Assembly (NCBI GenBank): GCA_963771885.1
Contig: CAVYVF010000007.1
Span: 32,001 to 96,000, forward strand
DNA: 64,000 nucleotides
DNA from: Candidatus Bathyarchaeota archaeon
GTDB lineage: Archaea; Thermoproteota; Bathyarchaeia; TCS64
Direction: 5' to 3'
Below, one piece after another: positions 35,399-49,833 of this stretch (position 1 is its first letter; each line of letters opens with the position of its first letter). A program made the translations under genes and the position numbers. Under the pieces are notes generated by a model that saw nothing but the letters and a program-made list of their open reading frames with translations, did no database searches and was not told the DNA's origin.

Positions 35399-37346
35399 TT
35401 GATTGAGTCACTCTACCAGATCGGCCTGCTCCTCCTGATCCTGAGCATCTTCTACCCCTTCGCTGTATTCATTAAGCGGAGCAGTGCCCCGCGGGCTCTC
35501 TCTAACACGTCCCTGATACTCTCCTCCCTACTGCTCACCGTGGCGTCCGTCCTACTCCTGCTCGACGGAAATGAGGTGGCTATCTTCAGCCACGTCTTCG
35601 CCCCGAGCCTCACCCTCTCCTTATCCGTCGACCGCCTCTCCGCATTCTTCGTTCTCGTGGTCTCCATCGTCTCCCTGAGCGTCGGGATATTCACGCCCGG
35701 TTACTTCCACCACGTCGAGTCCGAGGTACGCCGCAGCGTGGTCACATCCACAACAAGCATCTTCGTCGCCTCGATGCTCCTACTAGTCGTATCGCGTGAC
35801 ACTTTCTCGTTCCTCCTTTTCTGGGAGGCGATGAGCCTCTCCTCCTTCATGCTCGTCATGACGAGCTATGAGGCGAGGGAGGCGGGGAAGGCGGGGCTGT
35901 TCTACTTCGCGATGACGCAGCTGAGCACAATGTGCCTGATGGCGGGTTTCCTCGCCCTCTACGCGTTGACGGGTTCCTATTCGATCCCCTTCGCAGGCGT
36001 GATTGACCCGACTGTCCTCAGCATAATATTCGTAGTGCTCTTCATTGGCTTAGGCATCAAAGCGGGCGTCGTGCCGTTTCACAAGTGGCTTCCCTATGCC
36101 CACCCGGCGAGCCCCTCGAACGTCTCCGCTCTCATGTCAGGCGTCATGATAAAGGTCGCGATCTACGGCCTGATACGCTTCGTCTCCGGCGTCGCGTTCC
36201 CGCCGACATGGTGGGGTGGGCTCATTCTAGTCGCCGGCACCGTCTCCGCCGTCCTCGGCGTCGTCTACGCGATGAAGGAGCACGACGTCAAGCGCCTCCT
36301 CGCTTACCACAGTATCGAGAACGTCGGCATAATACTCGTCGCCTACGGGTTGAGCGTCAGTCTTCTCCAGCTACGGGCTCGCCGACCTAGCGAATCTCTG
36401 CCTCGTTGCCTCACTCTTCCACACCCTCAACCACGCCCTCTTCAAGAGCCTCCTCTTCATGACTGCGGGCTCGGTCATCAACGCGACTGGGCTGCGGAAC
36501 GTGGAGGAGCTTGGGGGGCTGATCAAGAGGATGCCCTACACGGCTGTTCTCTTCCTGATTGGGGCGGTCGCCATCTCGGGTCTGCCTCCCTTCAACGGCT
36601 TCGTGAGTGAGCTGATGATCTTCCAGGCGTTCTTCGCGGGGTGGCGCGTCGGAGGACCACTTGAGTCGGCGGTTATGCTTGCTTGCCTCGCCGTCTTTGC
36701 TCTAACGAGCGCCCTCGCCGCCGCTTGTTTCGTCAAGCTCTTCGGGACCATGTTTCTAGCAGCGCCGCGGAGCGAGGAGGCGGGTGAGGCACACGAGGTC
36801 AGGGGAGGGATGTTAGCCGGCCCCGCGATCCCGGCGGTGCTCTGCGTACTACTCGGGGTCTTCTCCTACCAGTTCCTCGCCCCCCTGGGGCTGGGCGCCT
36901 ACGTGCCAAACATGGCGGTCTTCGGGGTCGCCCTCCTCGTCTCTGGGGCCGCGGTCTTCGCCATCATCCGACTGTTCTCCAGCCGCGAGACACGCGTCTC
37001 TGAGACCTGGGGCTGCGGCATACATGAGCAGGACAGCCGCATGGAGTACACGCCTTCCGGCTTCTCCGAGCCCATCATGATAATCTTCAGGCAGATTTAC
37101 CGGACGCAGGAGCGCCTCGACCTCACCTACTATGACAGGAACCGCGTCATCCTACGCGGGGGTCTCGCCGAGGTGCGCCTCGTCAAGCTCTTTGAGGACC
37201 GGCTCTACCTCCCCGCGGCGAACGCGGCGCTCCGCGTCTCCGAGGCCTTTAACAGGGCGCAGGAGGAGCCACTCAGCGACTCCTACTTTCTCTACATCTT
37301 CGCGGCATGCCTCGCGCTTCTCATCGCCGGGGGGCTACTGCTATGA
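35399..37346 (+). CDS. hyfB: Ehr/Hyf antiporter-like subunit (HyfB/NuoL-like), frameshift near 36360
   Basis: FWEAMS, GIKAGVVPFHKWLPYAHP, LAYHSIENVG, GLPPFNGF, TWGCG. Confidence 0.85.
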
Positions 37347-38284
37347 TAGAGCAACTAACCTACGTCGCCCTGAACACGCTCGTCTTCTTACTCGTCTCGC
37401 CGCTGTTCGTCAGCCTCGTGAAGAAGGTGAAGGCGTGGTGTCAGGGGAGGCGGGGGCCGCCGCTCCTACAGGGCTATTACAACGTCGCGAAGCTATTGCG
37501 TAAGGAGGTAGTCTACTCCTCGACATCCTCGTGGGTTATGCGGTTCACCCCTTATCTGAGCATGTCCGTCCTTGCTGTCGCGTCTCTGGCGGTGCCGCTC
37601 GTGCTCGTGCCCGGCGACCTCTGGGGCCTAGGCAACGTGATACTGCTCATCTACGCGCTGGCGCTCGCCAAGTTCTTCATGGCGCTCTCTGGCCTCGACG
37701 CGGGCAGCACCTTCGGCGGCATGGGAGCGAGCCGCGAGATGAGCCTCTCGGCCGTCTTCGAGCCCGTCGTCATAATGGTCTTCGCTGCCCTCAGTTACCT
37801 GCTCCACACTTCAGACGTGCCGCAGATGCTCGGCCTCGGGATCGGGGCACCTCTAATACTGATCCACCCGACGCTCATTCTGCTCCTAATCAGCCTTTTC
37901 ATAATTCTAATAGTCGAGACGGCGCGGGTGCCTGTGGACAATCCGGAGACCCACCTCGAGTTGACGATGATTCACGAGGCTATGATACTGGAGCAGTCGG
38001 GGCGCAACCTCGCACTGATGGAGTACAGCTACGCGCTGAAGAACACCCTCTTCATCGCCCTGCTAGTAAACCTCGCGTTTCCCTGGGGGCTGACGACTGA
38101 GCTGAGCCTCGTGCCCATCTGCGTAGGCGTCGCCTTATTCCTAGCTAAGGGCGTCTTGGCTTCCCTACTCATCGGGCTCGTCGAGTCGAGCCTCGCCAAG
38201 TACCGCCTCTTCAGGATGCCGAGCATGTTCACGGTGGTCCTGTTCTTCTCTTTCCTCACGATAATCCTGGAGGTGTTCAGTTAA
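37343..38284 (+). CDS. hyfC: Ehr/Hyf membrane subunit (HyfC/NuoH-like)
   Basis: QGRRGPP, GGMGASRE, ETARVPVDNPETHLELTMIHEAM. Confidence 0.9.
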   Translation: MIEQLTYVALNTLVFLLVSPLFVSLVKKVKAWCQGRRGPPLLQGYYNVAKLLRKEVVYSSTSSWVMRFTPYLSMSVLAVASLAVPLVLVPGDLWGLGNVILLIYALALAKFFMALSGLDAGSTFGGMGASREMSLSAVFEPVVIMVFAALSYLLHTSDVPQMLGLGIGAPLILIHPTLILLLISLFIILIVETARVPVDNPETHLELTMIHEAMILEQSGRNLALMEYSYALKNTLFIALLVNLAFPWGLTTELSLVPICVGVALFLAKGVLASLLIGLVESSLAKYRLFRMPSMFTVVLFFSFLTIILEVFS

Positions 38285-38967
38285 TGGACGCCACCTTCTA
38301 CGCCGAGGTGTTACGGGTGCTGCTGGTCCTCGTCGTCGTTACGGCGGCTGCTATAGTTGTCATGAGGGATATCCCCTTCCTCTTCGCGAGCTATGCCTTC
38401 CAGTCGCTGCTTCTCGCCCTTGTCGCCTTCGCCCTCTACGCGGAGACAGGTGAGCTCTCCCTCATCGGCGTGGGTGTGGCGACGATCGTGGGGAAGGTGC
38501 TGATAATCCCCCGCTTCATGGGCAAGATACAGGGCGACATGCGTGTGCGCCGCGACATAGAGTTCCGCATCTTAAGCCCAACGACGAGCGTGTTACTCTC
38601 CGTAGCCGTGCTCTTCATCGTCCACTACTCCTTCCAGCGCTTCGCCGCCGTGCTGGAGCTCGACACCGTCCACTACCTCGGCACAATCTTCGGGCTCCTC
38701 CTCGTCTTCATGGGGCTGCTAGTCATGTTCAGCAGGAGGAGGCCGATCACGAAGATAGTAGGCTACCTCACGATGGAGAACGGGGTTCTCCTCTTCAGCC
38801 TATTCTTCGCGGCGCTGCCCCTCGTCTTCGAGGTTATAGTGACCGTCGACCTGATCGTCGTCGTCCTGCTGGCGACTTTACTCGCCTTCGGGGAGTCCTC
38901 GGACGTTGACACCTTCCAGAGGCGTCTAGTTCCGTTCAAAACGTGGATACTGGAGGGGGACGAATGA
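38284..38967 (+). CDS. hyfE: Ehr/Hyf membrane subunit (HyfE/NuoK-like)
   Basis: Hydrophobic, GYLTMENG motif, operon position. Confidence 0.85.
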   Translation: MDATFYAEVLRVLLVLVVVTAAAIVVMRDIPFLFASYAFQSLLLALVAFALYAETGELSLIGVGVATIVGKVLIIPRFMGKIQGDMRVRRDIEFRILSPTTSVLLSVAVLFIVHYSFQRFAAVLELDTVHYLGTIFGLLLVFMGLLVMFSRRRPITKIVGYLTMENGVLLFSLFFAALPLVFEVIVTVDLIVVVLLATLLAFGESSDVDTFQRRLVPFKTWILEGDE

Positions 38968-40400
38968 TAGAGTTTTACGTTCTCCTCTGCATGGCGGCGC
39001 TCGCAATCGTGGTTGCCTCGAAGAGCAGGGTGCAGATGAACTCGGTGACCGTGGTCTACGCCTTCGTCTGTCTCGCTCTCACCGTATACGGGCTCACAGT
39101 TCCCTTGCCCATCTACTACTTCGCCGACCACCTGTTCGCCTTGACGAACCTCGGGCTCTACTTGGTCGCCGGCGCCTCGGCGGTCTTCCTCCTCGCCGCC
39201 GTCTACAGCTACGGCTACGTCCAGGACCTGCTAGACGTGGAGGCGATGAAGAGGGAGAACCTTCGCCTCTTCTATATCTCTTTCAACCTGCTGCTGCTCT
39301 CCGTAGTACTCGCGTTCCTCTCGAACAGCGTTGCCCTCTTCTGGGTCTTCACGGAGCTGACGACGCTCTTCTCCTGCGTGCTGGTTGTGTCGGTTAGAGA
39401 CAGGGGCGCGATACACGCTGCGCTAAACTACGTCTTCGTCGCCTCGGCGGCGATGATTTTCAGCTTTATGGGGATACTTATGGCTTATGCTCTCACGACT
39501 GGTGGCACCGTCGCCCTCAACTGGGACAGCCTCGCCGCCGGTGCGTCCTCATTCAACGCCCATCTACTCGGGCTAGCGGCGGTCTTCATGTTCGTGGGCT
39601 TCGCCGCCAAGGCGGCCGTCGCGCCGTTCCACACGGGGCTCGCCCCCGTCTACGGGAGGGGTCCCGTCATATTCAGCGTGTTGTCGGGCTCGCTGCTGAC
39701 AGTCGGGGTGTACGGACTCATCCGAGTCAACTCGATTGTCTCCGGGACAGCCGCAGGCTCCGCCTTCTCGATGCTCCTCATAGGCTTCGGCGTGTTCACC
39801 ATCGCGGTGGCGGGCTTCACGATGCTCGCCCAGAGGAGGCTTCGCAGGCTCTTCGCCTTCTCAAGTGTAGAGAATATGGGTGTGGCGCTGATCGCAGTCG
39901 GCGTTGGGACGCCTGTGACGCTCCTCTGGGTGCTCTATCACCTCGTGGCGCACGGGTTCGCCAAGTCGCTGATCTTCTTCAGTCACGGCATTCTTCGCGT
40001 CCAGTACCGGAGCGTGGATGATGGGAAGGTGGTCAACCTGATCAGGCTTCAGCCGCTGGCGCTTGCTGGGCTCGTGGTGGGGAGCGCAGCTGTGATAGGG
40101 GCACCCCTCCTCCCCCTCTTCCTATCGAAGTTTTTCATACTATCAGAGCTAGCGAAGCTATCCCCTATCTTGCTGGGGCTAACGCTGCTCCTGCTCGCTA
40201 TAGTAGCGATCGCCGTGGGATATTCATTGATACACGTTGTGACACGTGTTGAGGAGGGTGGGCCGAAGCCCGTCTCGGTCACCCCTTCGATGTGGGCGCC
40301 GATCGCGGTGTTGATCCTTGTATTATTCGTTCTCGGCTTGGCAATGCCGGAGGGACTACATGCAGTCCTCGCCGGTGCCCTAGCCGAACTGGGGGTCTGA
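38964..40400 (+). CDS. hyfF: Ehr/Hyf antiporter-like subunit (HyfF-like)
   Basis: WVFTELTT, GFAAKA..PFH, AFSSVENMG, HGFAKSL. Confidence 0.85.
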   Translation: MIEFYVLLCMAALAIVVASKSRVQMNSVTVVYAFVCLALTVYGLTVPLPIYYFADHLFALTNLGLYLVAGASAVFLLAAVYSYGYVQDLLDVEAMKRENLRLFYISFNLLLLSVVLAFLSNSVALFWVFTELTTLFSCVLVVSVRDRGAIHAALNYVFVASAAMIFSFMGILMAYALTTGGTVALNWDSLAAGASSFNAHLLGLAAVFMFVGFAAKAAVAPFHTGLAPVYGRGPVIFSVLSGSLLTVGVYGLIRVNSIVSGTAAGSAFSMLLIGFGVFTIAVAGFTMLAQRRLRRLFAFSSVENMGVALIAVGVGTPVTLLWVLYHLVAHGFAKSLIFFSHGILRVQYRSVDDGKVVNLIRLQPLALAGLVVGSAAVIGAPLLPLFLSKFFILSELAKLSPILLGLTLLLLAIVAIAVGYSLIHVVTRVEEGGPKPVSVTPSMWAPIAVLILVLFVLGLAMPEGLHAVLAGALAELGV

Positions 40401-40404
40401 TGAA

Positions 40405-41952
40405 ATGACTACGATTCGCGAGTTAGCGCTAGGGCTCTTCGAGGGCATAGTGATGCACGAGGCGCATAACGAGTGCTACTTCTCAGTCGATGAGCCACAC
40501 TTCCACGATGCTATCAACGCACTATCAGGCGCCGGCTTCGGTCTCATGGGGCTCTTCTGCGTCGAGGGCTTCGAGGGCGAGGCGCTTAGCATCCTCTACG
40601 CCTTTGAGAAGAAGGACGCGGAGGGCATCCTCTTCATAGTCAGGGGCGTCGTGGGCGGCGTCGCCTCGATTGCCGACATCTACCCATCCGCCTCTTGGTA
40701 CGAGCGCGAGGCTGCCGACGGCTTCGGTATCCGCTTCGCCGACGCCTTCGACAGGCGCCGCCTTTTCCTGCACGAGGTCTACCCCGAGGGCTTCCACCCG
40801 CTCCAGAAGCTGTTCGTGAACGGCCCCATGAAGCTGGGCGGCGCGAGGGCTGAGGAGTACCGCTTCAAGCGCGTCTCCGGTGAAGGCGTCTACCAGATAC
40901 CCGTCGGCCCCGTCCACGCAGGCGTTATCGAGCCCGGCCACTTCCGCTTCAGCGTTATCGGCGAGTCCGTTTTCAGCCTCGAGCTCAGGATGTTCTGGAA
41001 GCATAGGGGCGTCGAGAAGCTCTCCGAGGGGCGCATGCCCGCCGACTGCGTTAGGATCGCCGAGTCGATAAGCGGTGACGAGTCCGCGTCGAACGCACTC
41101 GCCTACTGCATGGCGGTCGAGCGTATATCAGGAGCATCCGTCCCCGAGAGGGGGTGGGCCCTAAGGACGGTCTACGCGGAGCTAGAGCGCATCTACGCCC
41201 TTCTCGGCGATCTCGCCGGGATGGTTGTTGACGTAGCCTATCCTGTGGGCGCTAGCCCATTCTTCATCCTCAGGGAGGAGATTCTCAGGTGGAACGCCTC
41301 CCTGACCGGTTCACGCTTTCTTAAGAAGGCGGTGCGCCTCGGTGGTGCCGTCGACCCGGGGGATGAGAAGCTCGGCGAGCTAGTATTATATCTCGAGCGG
41401 TTTACGACACGCTTCTCGGAGACATGGAGGCACGTTGTAAACAACCCGAACGTTGTGGACAGGTTTGAGACGACGGGCGTGCTGAAGACGGAGCTCGTGT
41501 CTCTGCTGCACGTCACGGGGCCCGTAGCTCGGGCGTCTGGTGTCGCAGTCGATACGCGCGTTGATCATCCCTATGGTGTCTACCCGGAGGTCTTCAAGGA
41601 GATTGGACCGCAGAGCGGCGGCGACGTCATGGCGAGGTTCCAGCAGAAGTCGGGGGAGGTGCTGGCCTCGGCTACGATAATCAAAGGGATCGTGGAGAAG
41701 ATGCCACAAGGCGCGGCAAGGGTTGATGTGCCTGTCAGGGACGGCTTCGCCTGCGGGCTCGTCGAGTCGCCTCGCGGCCAGAACCTCCACTGGGTCCACA
41801 TACGCGGCGGGCGGGTGAGCCGGTATAAGGTGAGGACTGCCTCCTACTGCAACTGGCAGGCTATGGAGCATGCCGTCCCCGGTAACATCGTCCCCGATTT
41901 CCCGCTCGTCAACAAGAGCTTCAACCTCTCCTACGCGGGGACGGACCTCTAG
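40405..41952 (+). CDS. Ehr large subunit (fused NuoC/D-like, HyfG-like) without NiFe-binding Cys
   Basis: WYERE, VGPVHAGVIEPGHFRF, KHRGVEK; AESISGDE in place of RxCGxC and NKSFNLSY in place of DPCxxC. Confidence 0.9.
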   Translation: MTTIRELALGLFEGIVMHEAHNECYFSVDEPHFHDAINALSGAGFGLMGLFCVEGFEGEALSILYAFEKKDAEGILFIVRGVVGGVASIADIYPSASWYEREAADGFGIRFADAFDRRRLFLHEVYPEGFHPLQKLFVNGPMKLGGARAEEYRFKRVSGEGVYQIPVGPVHAGVIEPGHFRFSVIGESVFSLELRMFWKHRGVEKLSEGRMPADCVRIAESISGDESASNALAYCMAVERISGASVPERGWALRTVYAELERIYALLGDLAGMVVDVAYPVGASPFFILREEILRWNASLTGSRFLKKAVRLGGAVDPGDEKLGELVLYLERFTTRFSETWRHVVNNPNVVDRFETTGVLKTELVSLLHVTGPVARASGVAVDTRVDHPYGVYPEVFKEIGPQSGGDVMARFQQKSGEVLASATIIKGIVEKMPQGAARVDVPVRDGFACGLVESPRGQNLHWVHIRGGRVSRYKVRTASYCNWQAMEHAVPGNIVPDFPLVNKSFNLSYAGTDL

Positions 41953-41960
41953 GTGATTTC

Positions 41961-42483
41961 ATGGAGACTGTAAAGAGACTCATTGGGCGGAAGGCGACGG
42001 AGGATTTCGTGCTACGCGATGAGGAGTTTGAGGCTGCTCGGCGCACAGCTCAAGCGTCAAATAGACGCCGTCTTCGGGCGAAGCATCGCGATACGCGAGG
42101 TCGACACTGGCAGCGACAACTCACCCGAGATTGAGTTGAACAACCTCGCCACCCCCTACTATGATATAGAGCGCTTCGGTGTGAGCTTCGTCGCATCGCC
42201 CCGCCACGCGGATGTCCTCGCTGTAACCGGCCCAGTCACCCACAACATGGTGGAAGCGCTTCTGAAGACATACGAGGCGACGCCCAGTCCCAAATTCGTC
42301 GTCGCTGTGGGGGATGACGCTTGCGGCACAGGCGTGTTCAGCGAGTCTTATGCGGTTATCGGCTCCGTTGAGAAGGTGATACCCGTCGATCTGAAGATAC
42401 CTGGCGACCCACCGACGCCTACAGAGATAATGAAGGGATTGCTCGCCCTCATGAGGGTGGCGCGTGAAAGACGCGGGGCATAA
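41961..42483 (+). CDS. Ehr small subunit (NuoB/HyfI-like) with Fe-S ligands replaced; frameshift near 42025
   Basis: ATG after AGGTGA RBS; YDIERFG, SPRHADVL; GSDNSPE, GDDAC and PGDPP at the usual Cys positions. Confidence 0.9.
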
Positions 42484-43427: not shown

Positions 43428-43504
43428 TGGTGCCGCTGGTGTGATTTGAACACACAACCCCTCGGTCTTCAGCCGAGCGCTCTCCCAGGCTGAGCTACAG
43501 CGGC
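43428..43504 (-). tRNA. tRNA-Phe (anticodon GAA), CCA encoded
   Basis: GCCGCTG/CAGCGGC acceptor stem, TAGCTCAG, CTCGG-CTGAAGA-CCGAG, TTCAAATC. Confidence 0.95.
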
Positions 43505-43590: not shown

Positions 43591-44112
43591 GTGGGGGGAA
43601 AGGGAGACAAATTGGAACCCCCTTCACCGGATGCTAATAGGCTGGTCGATGACATCTACCCCAGCTACGCGGGCTACACCCCCATACAGAGTGCCCTGAT
43701 ACCCATCCTCCAGGAGATACAGAAGAAGGCGGGGTACCTCCCCCCTGCTTCTCTGGCGCGCGTAGCGGAGCTGCTACACATCCCCCCGAGCCAGGTCTAC
43801 GGCGTCGCCACATTCTATCACCAGTTCCGCCTCCGCCCCAAGGGGGAGCACCTAATCACGGTCTGTAGAGGGACCGCCTGCCATGTCAAGGGGTCGCAGG
43901 ACACCATCAACTACATCAACCAGCAGCTCGGCATCAAGGCGCCTCAGGACACGTCGCCGGACGGCGCCTTCACCGTCCAGCAGGTCAGGTGCCTCGGTGC
44001 ATGCGGACTCGCCCCTGTGATAAAGGTCGATGAAACCGTCTACGGGAAGGTCGACCACGCGAAGATCAGGGGCATCCTGAAGGCGATCAGGAAGGGAGGT
44101 AAACCGGAGTGA
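43591..44112 (+). CDS. NuoE/HydC-like [2Fe-2S] subunit
   Basis: VATFY, CRGTAC, CLGAC..APV. Confidence 0.92.
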   Translation: MGGKGDKLEPPSPDANRLVDDIYPSYAGYTPIQSALIPILQEIQKKAGYLPPASLARVAELLHIPPSQVYGVATFYHQFRLRPKGEHLITVCRGTACHVKGSQDTINYINQQLGIKAPQDTSPDGAFTVQQVRCLGACGLAPVIKVDETVYGKVDHAKIRGILKAIRKGGKPE

Positions 44113-45959
44113 ACGGGCTGATGGACCGCTGCGACAAGGATGATACGCTATACGGGGCTGGAGGCATCAGGGTCACCGTCGGGATGAGCACGTGCGGGCT
44201 CGCCTCGGGCGCTCAGGCCGTTTACGACGCGCTCCACGGGGAGTTTGCCCGGAGAGGACTGCACGCGAAGCTTGTCCCCGTTGGGTGCATGGGCTCCTGC
44301 TACGCTGAGGTCATCGTCGAGGTGACCCGGAAGGGCTACCCCACAGCGATATACAGCGACGTGACGCCCACGAAAGTGCCGGATATCCTCGACTCCTATC
44401 TATCGGGGGACGTATCCGGCGCACTTGCACTCAGATCCAAGACCGGGAAGATGAGGGGCGAGGAGACGGTTCCGCTCATAGAAGAGCTGCCCTTCTTTAG
44501 GCACCAGACGAGGAGGGTGCTAAAGAACTGCGGGGTCATCGACCCCGAGTCAATCGACGAGTACATCATCGCAGGCGGCTACCGCGCCCTCTCAAGGGTC
44601 CTCAAGGAGATGACCCCGGAGCAGGTGATAGCAGAGGTCTCCGCCTCCGGGCTCAGGGGGCGCGGAGGGGCGGGCTTCCCCGCGGGGCTCAAATGGAAGT
44701 TCTGCAGGCAGGTCCCCGGCGAGACCAAATACATGATCTGCAACGCGGACGAGGGCGACCCCGGGGCATTCATGAACCGCCTTACGGTCGAGGGCGATCC
44801 CCACAAGGTGCTTGAGGGACTGATAATCGCGGGCTATGCCATCGGTGCACACGAGGGCTACATATTCGTACGCGCCGAGAAGCCTCTCATGGCTGAGCGC
44901 CTTGAGACCGCCATCGCGCAGGCGAGGAAGAACGATCTACTAGGGAACAACATCCTCGGCTCGGGCTTCGGCTTCGACGTTAAGATAATGCTGAGTGCGG
45001 GTGCCTTCGTATGCGGTGAGGAGACGGCGCTCATCGCGGCGATCGAGGGCAAGAGGGCGATGCCCCGGGCGCGCCCGCCGTTCCCCGCCACGCAGGGGCT
45101 GTGGGACAAGCCCACCACGATAAACAATGTCGAGACGCTCGCACACGTCCCTCTCATACTCGCCGAAGGCGCGAAGGAGTATGCTGGCGTCGGCTCTGAG
45201 AAGAGCAAGGGAACCAAGGTCTACTGCCTCGCCGGCGACGTGGAGCGCACCGGCGCCGCCGAGGTCCCTATAGGGACAACCATCAGGAGGCTCGTCTTCG
45301 ATATCGGAGGTGGCGTCCCATTCGGGAAGAAGTTCAAGGCGATACAGATCGGCGGACCCAGCGGCGGCTGCCTCCCCGAGAAGTTCCTCGACCTCCCCCT
45401 CGACTACGAGTCGCTGCAGTCGGCGGGCGCCATCATGGGCTCCGGCGGCATCGTCATAATCGACGAGGACACGTGCATCGTCGACCTCGCCAAGTACTTC
45501 CTCAACTTCACCACCGCCGAGTCCTGCGGGAAGTGCTCCCCGTGCAGGATAGGGCTGCAGAGGATGCTCGAAACCATCACCAGAATCACCGAAGGTAACG
45601 GTACTGATGCGGACCTCGCCGCGCTGCGCGACATATCCGTCGCCGTGGCAGACTCGAGCCTCTGCGCCTTAGGGCGCACGGCGCCTAATCCAGTACTCAG
45701 CACCATGAAGTACTTCCCCGAGGAGTACCAGGCACACGTCGAGGAGAAGCGCTGCCCCGCCCACGCCTGCGTAGCGATGAACAAGGGCTACGCGGTCGAT
45801 GAGGCGGAGTGCAAGGGCTGCGGGCTCTGCGCCAGTAAATGCCCGACGAACTCGATAAACGTCGAAGCCATGAAGGCGAGCATAGACGCCGCCAAGTGCA
45901 TCAGATGCGGGCAATGCGTAAACGAGTGTCCCTTCGGGGCGATTAAGGAGGTGTGGTGA
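44109..45959 (+). CDS. NuoF/HydB-like FMN/NAD(P)H-binding subunit with C-terminal 2x[4Fe-4S]
   Basis: GRGGAGF, NADEGDPGAFM, CGEETAL, GGPSG, CGKCSPC, H..C...C site, two CxxCxxCxxxCP. Confidence 0.92.
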   Translation: MNGLMDRCDKDDTLYGAGGIRVTVGMSTCGLASGAQAVYDALHGEFARRGLHAKLVPVGCMGSCYAEVIVEVTRKGYPTAIYSDVTPTKVPDILDSYLSGDVSGALALRSKTGKMRGEETVPLIEELPFFRHQTRRVLKNCGVIDPESIDEYIIAGGYRALSRVLKEMTPEQVIAEVSASGLRGRGGAGFPAGLKWKFCRQVPGETKYMICNADEGDPGAFMNRLTVEGDPHKVLEGLIIAGYAIGAHEGYIFVRAEKPLMAERLETAIAQARKNDLLGNNILGSGFGFDVKIMLSAGAFVCGEETALIAAIEGKRAMPRARPPFPATQGLWDKPTTINNVETLAHVPLILAEGAKEYAGVGSEKSKGTKVYCLAGDVERTGAAEVPIGTTIRRLVFDIGGGVPFGKKFKAIQIGGPSGGCLPEKFLDLPLDYESLQSAGAIMGSGGIVIIDEDTCIVDLAKYFLNFTTAESCGKCSPCRIGLQRMLETITRITEGNGTDADLAALRDISVAVADSSLCALGRTAPNPVLSTMKYFPEEYQAHVEEKRCPAHACVAMNKGYAVDEAECKGCGLCASKCPTNSINVEAMKASIDAAKCIRCGQCVNECPFGAIKEVW

Positions 45960-46790
45960 TTGAGCATCGAGATAACCATAGACGGGCGCAAGGTCAAGTG
46001 CGAGCCGAACCAGTCGATCCTCGACGTCGCTGAGGCGAATGGGATACACATCCCGACGCTCTGCCACCACCCTCACCTCAGAGCCACTGGCGCGTGCAGG
46101 ATGTGTGTCATCGATCTCGGGCGCCCCGACAGGCTCGAAGCAGCCTGCACGACCCCGGTCGCCCCTAACATGGTCGTCAACACAGCAAACGACAGGGTCA
46201 CGAGGGCGAGGAAGACGACCCTCGAACTCATCCTCTCCAACCTCGGCGTCGAACCAGAGGCGCTAAAAAAGAGCGACGGGAACAAGCTGCTGGAGCTAGC
46301 AAAGGAGCTTGGCGTCGACACGCAAGCCCTCAGGTTCAAGCCGCCGAAGGCGGAGCCGAGACAGGTCGACAGCCGTAACCCCGTCATCATCAGGGACAGG
46401 GACAGGTGTATACTCTGCGGGCGCTGCGTGAGTGCATGCAACGAGCTTCGCCACTACGGCGTCCTCAACTTCGAGGGGCGCGGGTACAACACGGACGTGG
46501 TCTCAGGCCTCGTCGAGCCGCTCCTAGAGTCTGGCTGCGCCTCGTGCGGCGAGTGCGTCGAGGTCTGCCCTACGGGTGCCTTCAAGACGCTGGCGAAGGA
46601 GCTAGTGCAAGGCGAGGTCGACACCCTCATCGAGACGGGTTTGGCCTTGCCCTCCTCGGCTGCGACGCAGTCGGCGAGGAGCAGGCTCGGGTTACCACCC
46701 ATCGATAACAGTGGCGCAGGTGACCTGCCCAAGATCGCGCGTAAAACTAGGCTTCAATGCAAGACCGTTAAGGAGGCTGAAACGCAGTGA
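45960..46790 (+). CDS. NuoG/HydA N-terminal-like ferredoxin subunit ([2Fe-2S]+2x[4Fe-4S]) with HdrC-like tail, no catalytic domain
   Basis: IPTLC..GACRMC..AC, CILCGRCVSAC, CASCGECVEVCP, tail ETGLALP..ARSRLGLPP. Confidence 0.85.
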   Translation: MSIEITIDGRKVKCEPNQSILDVAEANGIHIPTLCHHPHLRATGACRMCVIDLGRPDRLEAACTTPVAPNMVVNTANDRVTRARKTTLELILSNLGVEPEALKKSDGNKLLELAKELGVDTQALRFKPPKAEPRQVDSRNPVIIRDRDRCILCGRCVSACNELRHYGVLNFEGRGYNTDVVSGLVEPLLESGCASCGECVEVCPTGAFKTLAKELVQGEVDTLIETGLALPSSAATQSARSRLGLPPIDNSGAGDLPKIARKTRLQCKTVKEAETQ

Positions 46791-47674
46791 CACACAGCTA
46801 CGCCTTCTTCACAGGGTGCCAGATGCCCATCCGCCAGCCCCACATCGAGTACGTCACGAGGAAGATAATGCCAGAGCTCGGCGTCGAGCTGGTCGACGTC
46901 AAGGGCTTCACATGCTGCCCCGAGCCCGTCGCCGTGGGTCTCCAGGACAGATTCGCCTCGACCGCCATCGCGGCGCGGAACATCGCCGTCGCCGAGGAGC
47001 AGGGAGCAGACCTCATGACAGCCTGCAACGGCTGCTACTTCACGCTCAGGCACGCGGTCGAGGAGCTCCGTGACGCGGGGACGAGGGTTAAGGTGAACGA
47101 GGCACTCGCCGAGACCGGGCACACATACCGAGGAACCGCTTCCGTCAAGCACTTCGCACAGGTTCTCAGGGACGACGTGGGCATCGAGGCGATCAGGCGC
47201 GCGTCAAAGCACCAGCTAACCGGGCTGAACGTCGCTGCGCACACGGGGTGCCACTTCTCAAACCGCATGGGCGAGGACGCCAAGCTCCTCGACACGCTCA
47301 TAGAGGCGACGGGGGCAAAATCGATAGCTTACGAGGATAAGAACCTCTGCTGCGGCTGGACGCTCGGCACCTACGGGAAGCCCGAGGAGGGCTACGCGTG
47401 GCTCAAGAAGAGGCTCGACTCCATGAAGGCGGGAGGAGCAGAATGCATCGCCGTAATCTGTCCCCAGTGCCTGCAGCAGTTCGACATGGGGCAGCTCATA
47501 GCGTCGAGGAAGGTCCAGTTAGCATACAAGCTACCCGCCCTCTTCTACCTGCAACTACTCGGGGTCGCCATGGGGCACACGCCGGAGGAGATGCAACTCA
47601 GTGCTGACAGGGTCAAGGAACCCGCCCTCGACGAGAAACTGAGGAAACTGCGGCGCCTGAGTCCCCGCAAGTGA
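46787..47674 (+). CDS. hdrB: Heterodisulfide reductase subunit B-like (two CCG domains)
   Basis: FTGC, FTCCP, ACNGC, HTGCH, LCCG, ICPQC..QFD. Confidence 0.9.
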   Translation: MTHSYAFFTGCQMPIRQPHIEYVTRKIMPELGVELVDVKGFTCCPEPVAVGLQDRFASTAIAARNIAVAEEQGADLMTACNGCYFTLRHAVEELRDAGTRVKVNEALAETGHTYRGTASVKHFAQVLRDDVGIEAIRRASKHQLTGLNVAAHTGCHFSNRMGEDAKLLDTLIEATGAKSIAYEDKNLCCGWTLGTYGKPEEGYAWLKKRLDSMKAGGAECIAVICPQCLQQFDMGQLIASRKVQLAYKLPALFYLQLLGVAMGHTPEEMQLSADRVKEPALDEKLRKLRRLSPRK

Positions 47675-49757: not shown

Positions 49758-49833
49758 GGGCCGGTGGTCTAGTGGTTATGACATCGCCTTGACATGGCGG
49801 GGGTCGCAGGTCCGACTCCTGCCCGGCCCACCA
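49758..49833 (+). tRNA. tRNA-Val (anticodon GAC), CCA encoded
   Basis: GGGCCGG/CCGGCCC acceptor stem, TCGCC-TTGACAT-GGCGG arm; T-loop reads TCCGACT. Confidence 0.9.

Follow-up and report, generated by a model that had tools for sequence, protein, structure and literature searches.

How might electrons from a pyridine nucleotide reach HdrB where no HdrA is encoded beside it? The question is raised by four genes in a 64,000-nucleotide stretch of a Candidatus Bathyarchaeota genome (assembly GCA_963771885.1, contig CAVYVF010000007.1, positions 32,001 to 96,000; hereafter, the window), which a first-pass annotation had described as a tightly coupled unit of NuoE-like, NuoF-like, ferredoxin and HdrB subunits. 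This description held: the open reading frames (ORFs) and domains are those named, bfuC, bfuB, gene 3 and hdrB are joined in that order by a 4-bp overlap, an abutting stop and start, and another 4-bp overlap (Table 1), and within the unit Pfam detected neither HdrA nor a stand-alone HdrC, nor an H-cluster or a molybdopterin domain. hdrA was found neither in the unit nor adjoining it in the related loci examined; several hdrA and hdrC genes lie elsewhere in the genome. As judged from sequence, gene 3 is a chimera of a BfuA-type electron wire and the C-terminal arm of HdrC, and the four proteins likely form one soluble complex.

The closest domain resemblance of gene 3 in Pfam and NCBIfam was to the N-terminus of group A6 [FeFe] hydrogenases and HoxU. 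In a single-chain model (predicted local distance difference test, pLDDT, 82; an earlier model with pLDDT 58 was not used), the fold of its head resembled the N-termini of HydA, FdsA and HoxU, with 7t2r_A matched at E 4e-19 and a root-mean-square deviation of 1.9 over 210 columns. The His-ligated A3 motif was present in 0/51 aligned gene 3 family members, one of which retains a single vestigial Cys, and it is retained in the sister FdhA proteins (10 sister or other BfuA ORFs show it). Residues 193 to 265 matched an ORF on contig C23 of the same genome, immediately upstream of the closest hdrB paralogue (50% identical); the only NCBIfam match of this ORF was to HdrC (TIGR03290), below the cut-off, and all eight HdrC cysteines are present. 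A profile of residues 210 to 268, built from 51 family members, matched this genome's own HdrC at E 1.3e-14; apart from it, gene 3 alone of the 10,011 ORFs scored below E 0.1. When gene 3 was compared to 21 HdrC sequences with hhalign, the match (P 99.4%, E 2.6e-21) was strongest in the tail, and the same 21-sequence alignment matched the solved HdrC chains 8rvv_C, 8rvu_c and 5odc_C over the arm. The HdrC helix that follows the second motif has been lost at the junction. Fold searches with the single-chain model matched the BfuA head only and were uninformative on the arm, and an Atlas search with residues 185 to 270 returned generic ferredoxins only. The label "ferredoxin subunit" can be refined in two respects: the protein additionally carries an HdrC arm and is without the His-ligated A3 motif. 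The arm reinforces the link, drawn in the first-pass annotation, between a HydBC-type core and HdrB without HdrA.

A search for hdrB synteny, which that annotation had proposed, bore it out. The full-length fusion was found in 7/71 family genomes, in two genera, always between nuoF and hdrB, with nuoE upstream in the five whose contigs are long enough; in an eighth family genome, the gene 3 head lies where the contig stops. At 12/12 metagenome loci, part of which are near-copies of one another, the fusion was followed by hdrB, with nuoF upstream in the nine whose contigs extend there and nuoE in two. This synteny argues that the four-gene arrangement is not due to chance. Tail-bearing proteins formed 57 clusters, of which 50 went into the profile, and none had a precomputed A3 Pfam domain. 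Among the matches listed in a genome-contig scan, gene 3 had relatives in Candidatus Bathyarchaeota at 96% and 61% identity and no fusion outside the family; likewise, a tail-profile search of 401 class genomes gave no fusion beyond the family, nor did 401 phylum genomes or the best 150 of 1.84 billion protein representatives, just one of which covered both head and tail. The dN/dS (nonsynonymous to synonymous substitution ratio) was 0.10 to 0.23 for every gene tested and 0.15 to 0.23 for the tail (three genome pairs). The four-gene system is real, under purifying selection and lineage-restricted.

The flavin module was compared to the marks of bifurcating enzymes given in PMC7311640, PMC8880783 and PMC12018979 (published sources are cited here and below for the parts of them that were drawn on). 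BfuC has the C1 [2Fe-2S] ligands C92, C97, C134 and C138. BfuB keeps AFM at 220 to 222 (A220, M222), F300, GGPSG at 415 to 419 and the flavin aspartate D214, along with the B1 ligands (C473/476/479/519), the B2 site (C456/H543/C549/C554) and all eight Cys of the B3-B4 dicluster (568 to 607), and its best PDB matches were all Bfu subunits (E 1e-172 to 1e-215). AFM, F300, GGPSG, the B2 ligands and the B3/B4 Cys were conserved in the six other fusion-linked BfuB proteins aligned, one of them probable. In the N-terminal B5 region, three Cys (C29/C60/C64) aligned with 9bov_B and 8oh5_B and a fourth ligand was not evident; B5 is Zn in two cases of active archaeal and bacterial Bfu enzymes (PMC12018979, PMC11829005). 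E305 is the equivalent of a glutamate described as selecting NADH over NADPH (PMC12018979), and this residue points to NADH as the pyridine nucleotide rather than to the NAD(P)H named at first pass. bfuB is the sole NuoF-like gene of the genome. As a separate observation, most fusion-linked BfuB proteins (L159, L167, L032, L033, L035, L178) have a Cys/His-rich N-terminal extension of ~40 residues, a possible extra metal site, which is deleted in the window's lineage (window 44109-44140).

In HdrB, both CCG motifs are complete (C11/43/44/80/83 and C155/188/189/225/228), so that 10/10 Cys are present, as had been noted before, and H156, the H154-equivalent, is kept. The protein matched solved methanogen HdrB chains in the PDB at E 1e-48 to 1e-66 and scored 247 against TIGR03288, below the cut-off of 345. 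Its substrate pocket is altered (W191, L193, Y196, Q227, M234), with a Trp directly after the second CCG in 19/19 fusion loci. A 7-residue deletion in the loop after H156 was found in 19/19 fusion loci and 0/23 fdh-operon loci.

Placed among known systems by these sequence features, the unit is a Type-2 Bfu enzyme with a new output module, and not an HdrABC. Its BfuB (FMN-binding, SLBB, NADH-4Fe-4S and C-terminal ferredoxin domains; FMN, flavin mononucleotide) and BfuC correspond to the definition of BfuABC (PMC9304861), and gene 3 supplies the [2Fe-2S] and [4Fe-4S] ferredoxin domains of BfuA. Type 2 is described as having an additional catalytic subunit beside a BfuA that lacks A3 (PMC9304861, PMC11829005), whereas Type 1 has its catalytic domain (H-cluster, pterin, FAD) inside a BfuA with A1-A4; gene 3, at 276 aa, contains no such domain and no A3 motif, and the candidate catalytic domain is on an extra subunit. 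The Type-2 enzymes Wor-Bfu, Codh-Bfu and Por-Bfu (Schut et al. 2022, PMC9304861; structures of the BfuABC family, 7t2r, 9bov, 8oh5, 9n5u, 9mqx) have in common with it the BfuC and BfuB core, FMN, the B1-B4 ligands, the bifurcation motifs and a BfuA with A1, A2 and A4, whereas the extra subunit here is HdrB and BfuA bears an HdrC arm. The Bfu types listed in PMC9304861 are FeFe, NiFe, Fdh, Nfn, F420, Wor, Bam, Codh, Por, Mbh, Nuo and Rub, with 17 clades unassigned; in the parts of that paper drawn on, Hdr appears only as HdrA in Bam, and an Hdr(B) third reaction is in neither the list nor Table 1; an earlier mention could stand in the paper's Supplementary Table 1. No description of an HdrB-linked Bfu was found in the literature searched, which included parts of PMC5736913, PMC8407382, PMC11406978 and PMC6085437 and left most subscription papers outside its scope.

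The Type-1 Fdh-Bfu of the same family keeps A3 and a molybdopterin domain, and the fusion has neither. The methanogen HdrABC-MvhAGD and Fdh-Hdr complexes (5odc, 8rvu, 9sfi, 7bkb) share an HdrB with two five-Cys CCG sites and H154, and a homologous HdrC arm, but here there is no HdrA input, a BfuA wire with its own dicluster takes the place of the alpha-helical HdrC ferredoxin core, the arm alone being HdrC-derived, and most contacts to coenzyme M (CoM) and coenzyme B (CoB) are changed. The class II benzoyl-CoA reductase BamDE-GHI (bioRxiv 10.64898/2026.04.10.717634) likewise combines, within a single complex, a confurcating module of the HydABC type and, downstream of it, an HdrBC-like subunit; there, the HdrA-type BamE intervenes and the distal cluster of BamD is disrupted, whereas in our unit, which has neither BamE nor the tungsten subunit BamB, the wire would lead directly to an HdrB with the ligands of both clusters intact. 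Rub-Bfu and Nuo-Bfu (PMC9304861), both predicted and uncharacterised, are likewise proposed to confurcate NADH and reduced ferredoxin onto a high-potential acceptor, their acceptor module being rubrerythrin or a quinone arm instead of HdrB. The Complex I N-module (NuoEFG) is marked by a NuoF without B2-B5, a long NuoG with a His-ligated cluster and membrane nuo genes in the operon; compared to it, the locus has the extra BfuB clusters, a short gene 3, a TIGR01959 score of 474 (cut-off 559) and neighbours that vary among relatives. A broken nuoEFG in one bathyarchaeial metagenome-assembled genome and an hdrB2 in an fpo operon have been reported (PMC8407382). Two further arrangements were seen in passing: proteins P0059 and P0060 join a 435-aa BfuA head, with the A3 region kept, to an extra dicluster and an MvhD/FlpD domain, possibly a second Bfu-to-Hdr connector, and nuoF-short bfuA-mvhG-mvhA-like operons found elsewhere in the class and phylum (L189, L192, L193, L194) are apparent NiFe-Bfu hydrogenases.

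The chimera would have originated by recombination of a Type-1 Fdh-Bfu operon (nuoE-nuoF-fdhA, ~900 aa) with an HdrA-less hdrC-hdrB-fdhA operon, just past the dicluster that both share. Type-1 Fdh-Bfu (nuoF plus a ~900-aa FdhA) was found in 19 family genomes; its BfuB proteins are the closest relatives of the window's (61 to 65% identity), and its closest heads are 50 to 56% identical to the gene 3 head. In a quick tree, the fusion heads formed one group (SH-aLRT support 92), sister to 13/18 FdhA heads (95). At class level, the next-best tail matches were HdrC proteins in 23/23 loci examined, 20 of them of the fdh-operon type, with hdrB next in 19 and hdrB-fdhA next in 17. The window's genome has such an operon itself; its FdhA scores above the TIGR01591 cut-off, hdrA is missing alongside, and the product is a candidate formate:disulfide oxidoreductase. 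The HdrA-less hdrC-hdrB-fdhA operon also occurs in several bathyarchaeial families (L136-L158, L173-L176, L179 among others). The fusion-linked HdrBs formed a single clade (100/100) within a clade of fdh-operon and fusion HdrBs (100/99), and the hdrC-hdrB-fdhA clade would be their source. In two genomes, the N-terminal HdrC dicluster is fused straight to FdhA (~810 aa; L171:2283-4721 and L172:1-2427, both on the minus strand) and arm and hdrB are both gone, which fits a role of the arm in holding HdrB. The recombination of these parents suggests that NADH with ferredoxin, and formate, may serve as parallel donors to one acceptor.

We infer, on good indirect evidence, that HdrB is physically associated with the Bfu core, and, with about as much confidence as doubt, we read the complex as a Type-2 "Hdr-Bfu" that confurcates NADH and reduced ferredoxin onto a disulfide other than CoM-S-S-CoB. 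NADH would enter at FMN and reduced ferredoxin through B3/B4 and C1, with confurcation at the FMN-B1-C1 site. From B1, electrons would pass through A1 and A2 to A4, which we take to be the cluster bound by the second ferredoxin motif, the HdrB-facing motif in HdrC; the motif-to-cluster assignment of A2 and A4 in gene 3 is our assumption. HdrC Y81 lies at the HdrB interface in HdrBC (PMC13518236) and, by residue count in the HdrC alignment, inside the second cysteine motif, which in gene 3 comes just before the graft; A4 would therefore face HdrB, and the grafted arm would position HdrB for electron delivery from A4 to the non-cubane clusters. The net reaction would be NADH + Fdred(2e) + 2 X-S-S-Y → NAD+ + Fdox + thiols, a coupled electron sink. 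Potentials from PMC9304861 put the energy of this confurcation, for a disulfide at -140 mV, at about -89 to -97 kJ. The third substrate of Bfu enzymes is a mid-potential partner, and the NADH/ferredoxin mean of about -390 mV is far below a disulfide near -140 mV, which makes confurcation the likelier direction and the bifurcation toward ferredoxin considered at first pass thermodynamically doubtful. That the acceptor is a disulfide, the direction of the reaction and its coupling are predictions.

Several points weigh against this reading. Only 1/6 of the CoM/CoB contacts given in PMC13261682 (R14, G46, G198, R201, F233, R240) is kept, as R16 here for R14 of 5ODR; the pocket changes are G46 to V, G198 to L, R201 to Y, F233 to Q and R240 to M, the last position being weak evidence since it is Val in 8rvu as well. 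With most contacts lost, CoM-S-S-CoB, one of the disulfides named for assay at first pass, is an unlikely substrate. The proton-path residues are also changed (HdrB E87 to H, HdrC Y81 to G), and the pocket and proton-path changes would equally suit a non-catalytic, BamD-like electron outlet. The arm is of low confidence in the single-chain model (three helices, pLDDT ~53), a 7-sequence tail profile on its own found no solved HdrC, and, with the HdrC helix after the second motif gone from the fusion, the A4-to-HdrB geometry is itself an assumption. The nesting of fusion HdrBs inside the fdh clade has weak support at inner nodes (82/87, 92/87), in a tree that included duplicate partial rows and long outgroups. 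Finally, strict confurcation onto a high-potential acceptor squanders the energy of ferredoxin.

The strongest rival keeps the same complex and has HdrB, like BamD, pass electrons out to a carrier protein, for instance electron-transfer flavoprotein (ETF), and not reduce a disulfide. The bulky pocket residues with the invariant Trp, and the loss of the CoB arginine and of the proton-path residues, would suit such an outlet, the pocket of BamD is occluded and its acceptor is ETF (10.64898/2026.04.10.717634), and the genome has two ETF loci. However, the distal cluster of BamD is usually disrupted and that of HdrB here is intact, and no etf genes turned up beside the fusion loci; we regard the outlet as rather unlikely. 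In a second alternative, the fusion complex and the hdrC-hdrB-fdhA complex would be halves of a split formate dehydrogenase that swap electrons via their related HdrBs, through a shared thiol or by direct docking, and jointly replace Type-1 Fdh-Bfu (formate <-> NAD + Fd). The genome contents point that way: hdrB-fdhA occurs in 6/7 fusion genomes (hdrC was seen in five and is off the contig in G050) and Type-1 Fdh-Bfu in 0/7, and fdh-type hdrC, found in 29/71 family genomes, occurs in 0/19 Type-1 genomes. Yet 24/29 genomes with fdh-type hdrC show no fusion, so that this operon works alone, and a thiol near -140 to -290 mV would be unable to reduce NAD+ and ferredoxin together. The genomes are moreover kin and drafts, so that the co-occurrence P values overstate and the exclusion pattern is not an independent test. 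A split enzyme is thus quite improbable.

A plain NADH:disulfide (or thiol:NAD+) oxidoreductase, with the ferredoxin branch uncoupled or vestigial, would find NADH alone already downhill to a -140 mV disulfide and could account for the three Cys of the B5 region; against it stand the conservation of the bifurcation motifs, B2 ligands and B3/B4 Cys in the other fusion-linked BfuB proteins, and the Zn that can occupy B5 in active Bfu enzymes, and it has little probability. The same intact motifs and ferredoxin branch would serve a non-canonical bifurcation, in which two NADH deliver to the flavin, one pair rising to the disulfide and the other dropping to ferredoxin, in the manner of Etf/Bcd or Flx-Hdr and without HdrA. 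With a -140 mV acceptor, this reaction comes to about -15 kJ at standard potentials and would conserve energy, but to about +15 kJ at physiological potentials, and in the Bfu enzymes described in the parts of PMC9304861 and PMC12018979 drawn on, NAD serves as the flavobicluster's high-potential end and not as a mid-potential donor; we find this bifurcation hardly probable. Least of all do we credit hdrB as a co-transcribed passenger, served in trans by HdrA and HdrC of other loci while the Bfu module has a different partner: hdrA and hdrC genes are indeed available in the genome, and hdr genes need not sit with their partners (PMC6085437), but the HdrC arm is fused to BfuA, has been conserved and evolves under purifying selection, and a deletion specific to the fusion is present in HdrB.

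Confurcation by Hdr-Bfu would be a new type of third reaction for the Bfu family, with components of two bifurcating systems that are unrelated to each other brought together in a soluble, expressible unit of four genes, and a direct test case for the coupling of a Bfu core with a high-potential third partner, of which the only instances to date are the predicted Rub- and Nuo-Bfu. It would also be a rare recent redox complex built by domain grafting, in which both parent operons, the junction, the lost A3 and the co-adapted HdrB loop are still readable. The host is probably a non-methanogenic archaeon, as had been proposed: McrA (PF02249) and ComA (PF02679) were not found in the 2.46-Mb, 92% complete genome, and controls worked. 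The unit may thus offer a handle on what HdrB does in archaea that are not methanogenic and in which neither Mcr nor a gene of CoM biosynthesis is seen. More tentatively, and with the balance against it, one may picture a thiol/disulfide hub in non-methanogenic Bathyarchaeia, served by an HdrA-free, formate-fed HdrCB-FdhA and an NADH/ferredoxin-fed Hdr-Bfu, possibly with the disulfide as a high-potential sink for NADH-driven ferredoxin reduction; if so, this would be the first Bfu flavobicluster wired directly to a non-cubane disulfide site.

In the same genome, fumarase genes adjoin hdrA pieces and an hdrC-hdrB-FeS-flavoprotein cluster (L125:3711-8386, C23:969707-974388) whose best match is to TfrA, far below the cut-off; the cluster is a possible thiol:fumarate reductase and, speculatively, the thiol sink, its HdrB being distant. 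A GcvH-like protein and a lipoate ligase lie beside an hdrA-mvhD-hdrCB-mvhGA cluster (L126:14498-16081), so that a lipoyl disulfide is a candidate substrate for Hdr. Frames or stops split the hdrB genes at C23:983638 and 992218.

Table 1. Features of the four-gene unit (window positions) and of the related operon in the same genome.
Feature	Position	Strand	Description
bfuC (NuoE/HydC-like)	43591..44112	+	173 aa, GTG start; 2Fe-2S_thioredx (Pfam)
bfuB (NuoF/HydB-like, FMN/NAD)	44109..45959	+	616 aa, GTG start; Complex1_51K + SLBB + NADH_4Fe-4S + C-terminal Fer4 (Pfam)
gene 3, chimeric bfuA::hdrC-arm	45960..46790	+	276 aa, TTG start; Fer2_4 + Fer4 dicluster (Pfam); diagnostic of the system
BfuA-type head, residues 1-209	45960..46586	+	A1 [2Fe-2S] C35/46/49/63, 2x[4Fe-4S] dicluster (A2, A4)
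degenerate A3 site, residues 95-108	46242..46283	+	His/Cys ligands of sister FdhA proteins replaced
HdrC-derived C-terminal arm, residues ~210-268	46587..46763	+	presumed HdrB-binding element
hdrB	46787..47674	+	295 aa, GTG start; 2x CCG (Pfam)
own-genome hdrC-hdrB-fdhA operon	L124:4947-8328 = C23:764946-768327		FdhA 671 aa without BfuA head

Around the operon, an M28 peptidase gene follows hdrB only in the window and in one 96%-identical relative, and two fusion genomes (L032:2519-3031, L033:7148-7651) have a rubrerythrin gene on the hdrB strand, two genes downstream of it, which was not seen in the others. A scan for sigma-70 promoters and terminators stayed at chance level, its model being unsuited to archaea. 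Of the five RNA runs listed, two contained a small share of the sequence words, and three runs gave scattered, near-identical pieces of ~150 nt and no bridging contig. Upstream, an Ehr/hydrogenase-4-like membrane cluster occupies window 35399-42483 (+); its large subunit is without NiFe CxxC motifs, and its first subunit shifts frame near 36360. We reject a link to this Ehr/hyf-like cluster, as it is separated from the operon by a tRNA and two ORFs on the opposite strand and the neighbours differ in relatives. A tRNA-Phe gene (43428-43504, minus strand) lies just upstream of the operon and a tRNA-Val gene (49758-49833) downstream, past which the GC content drops from ~62% to ~50%.

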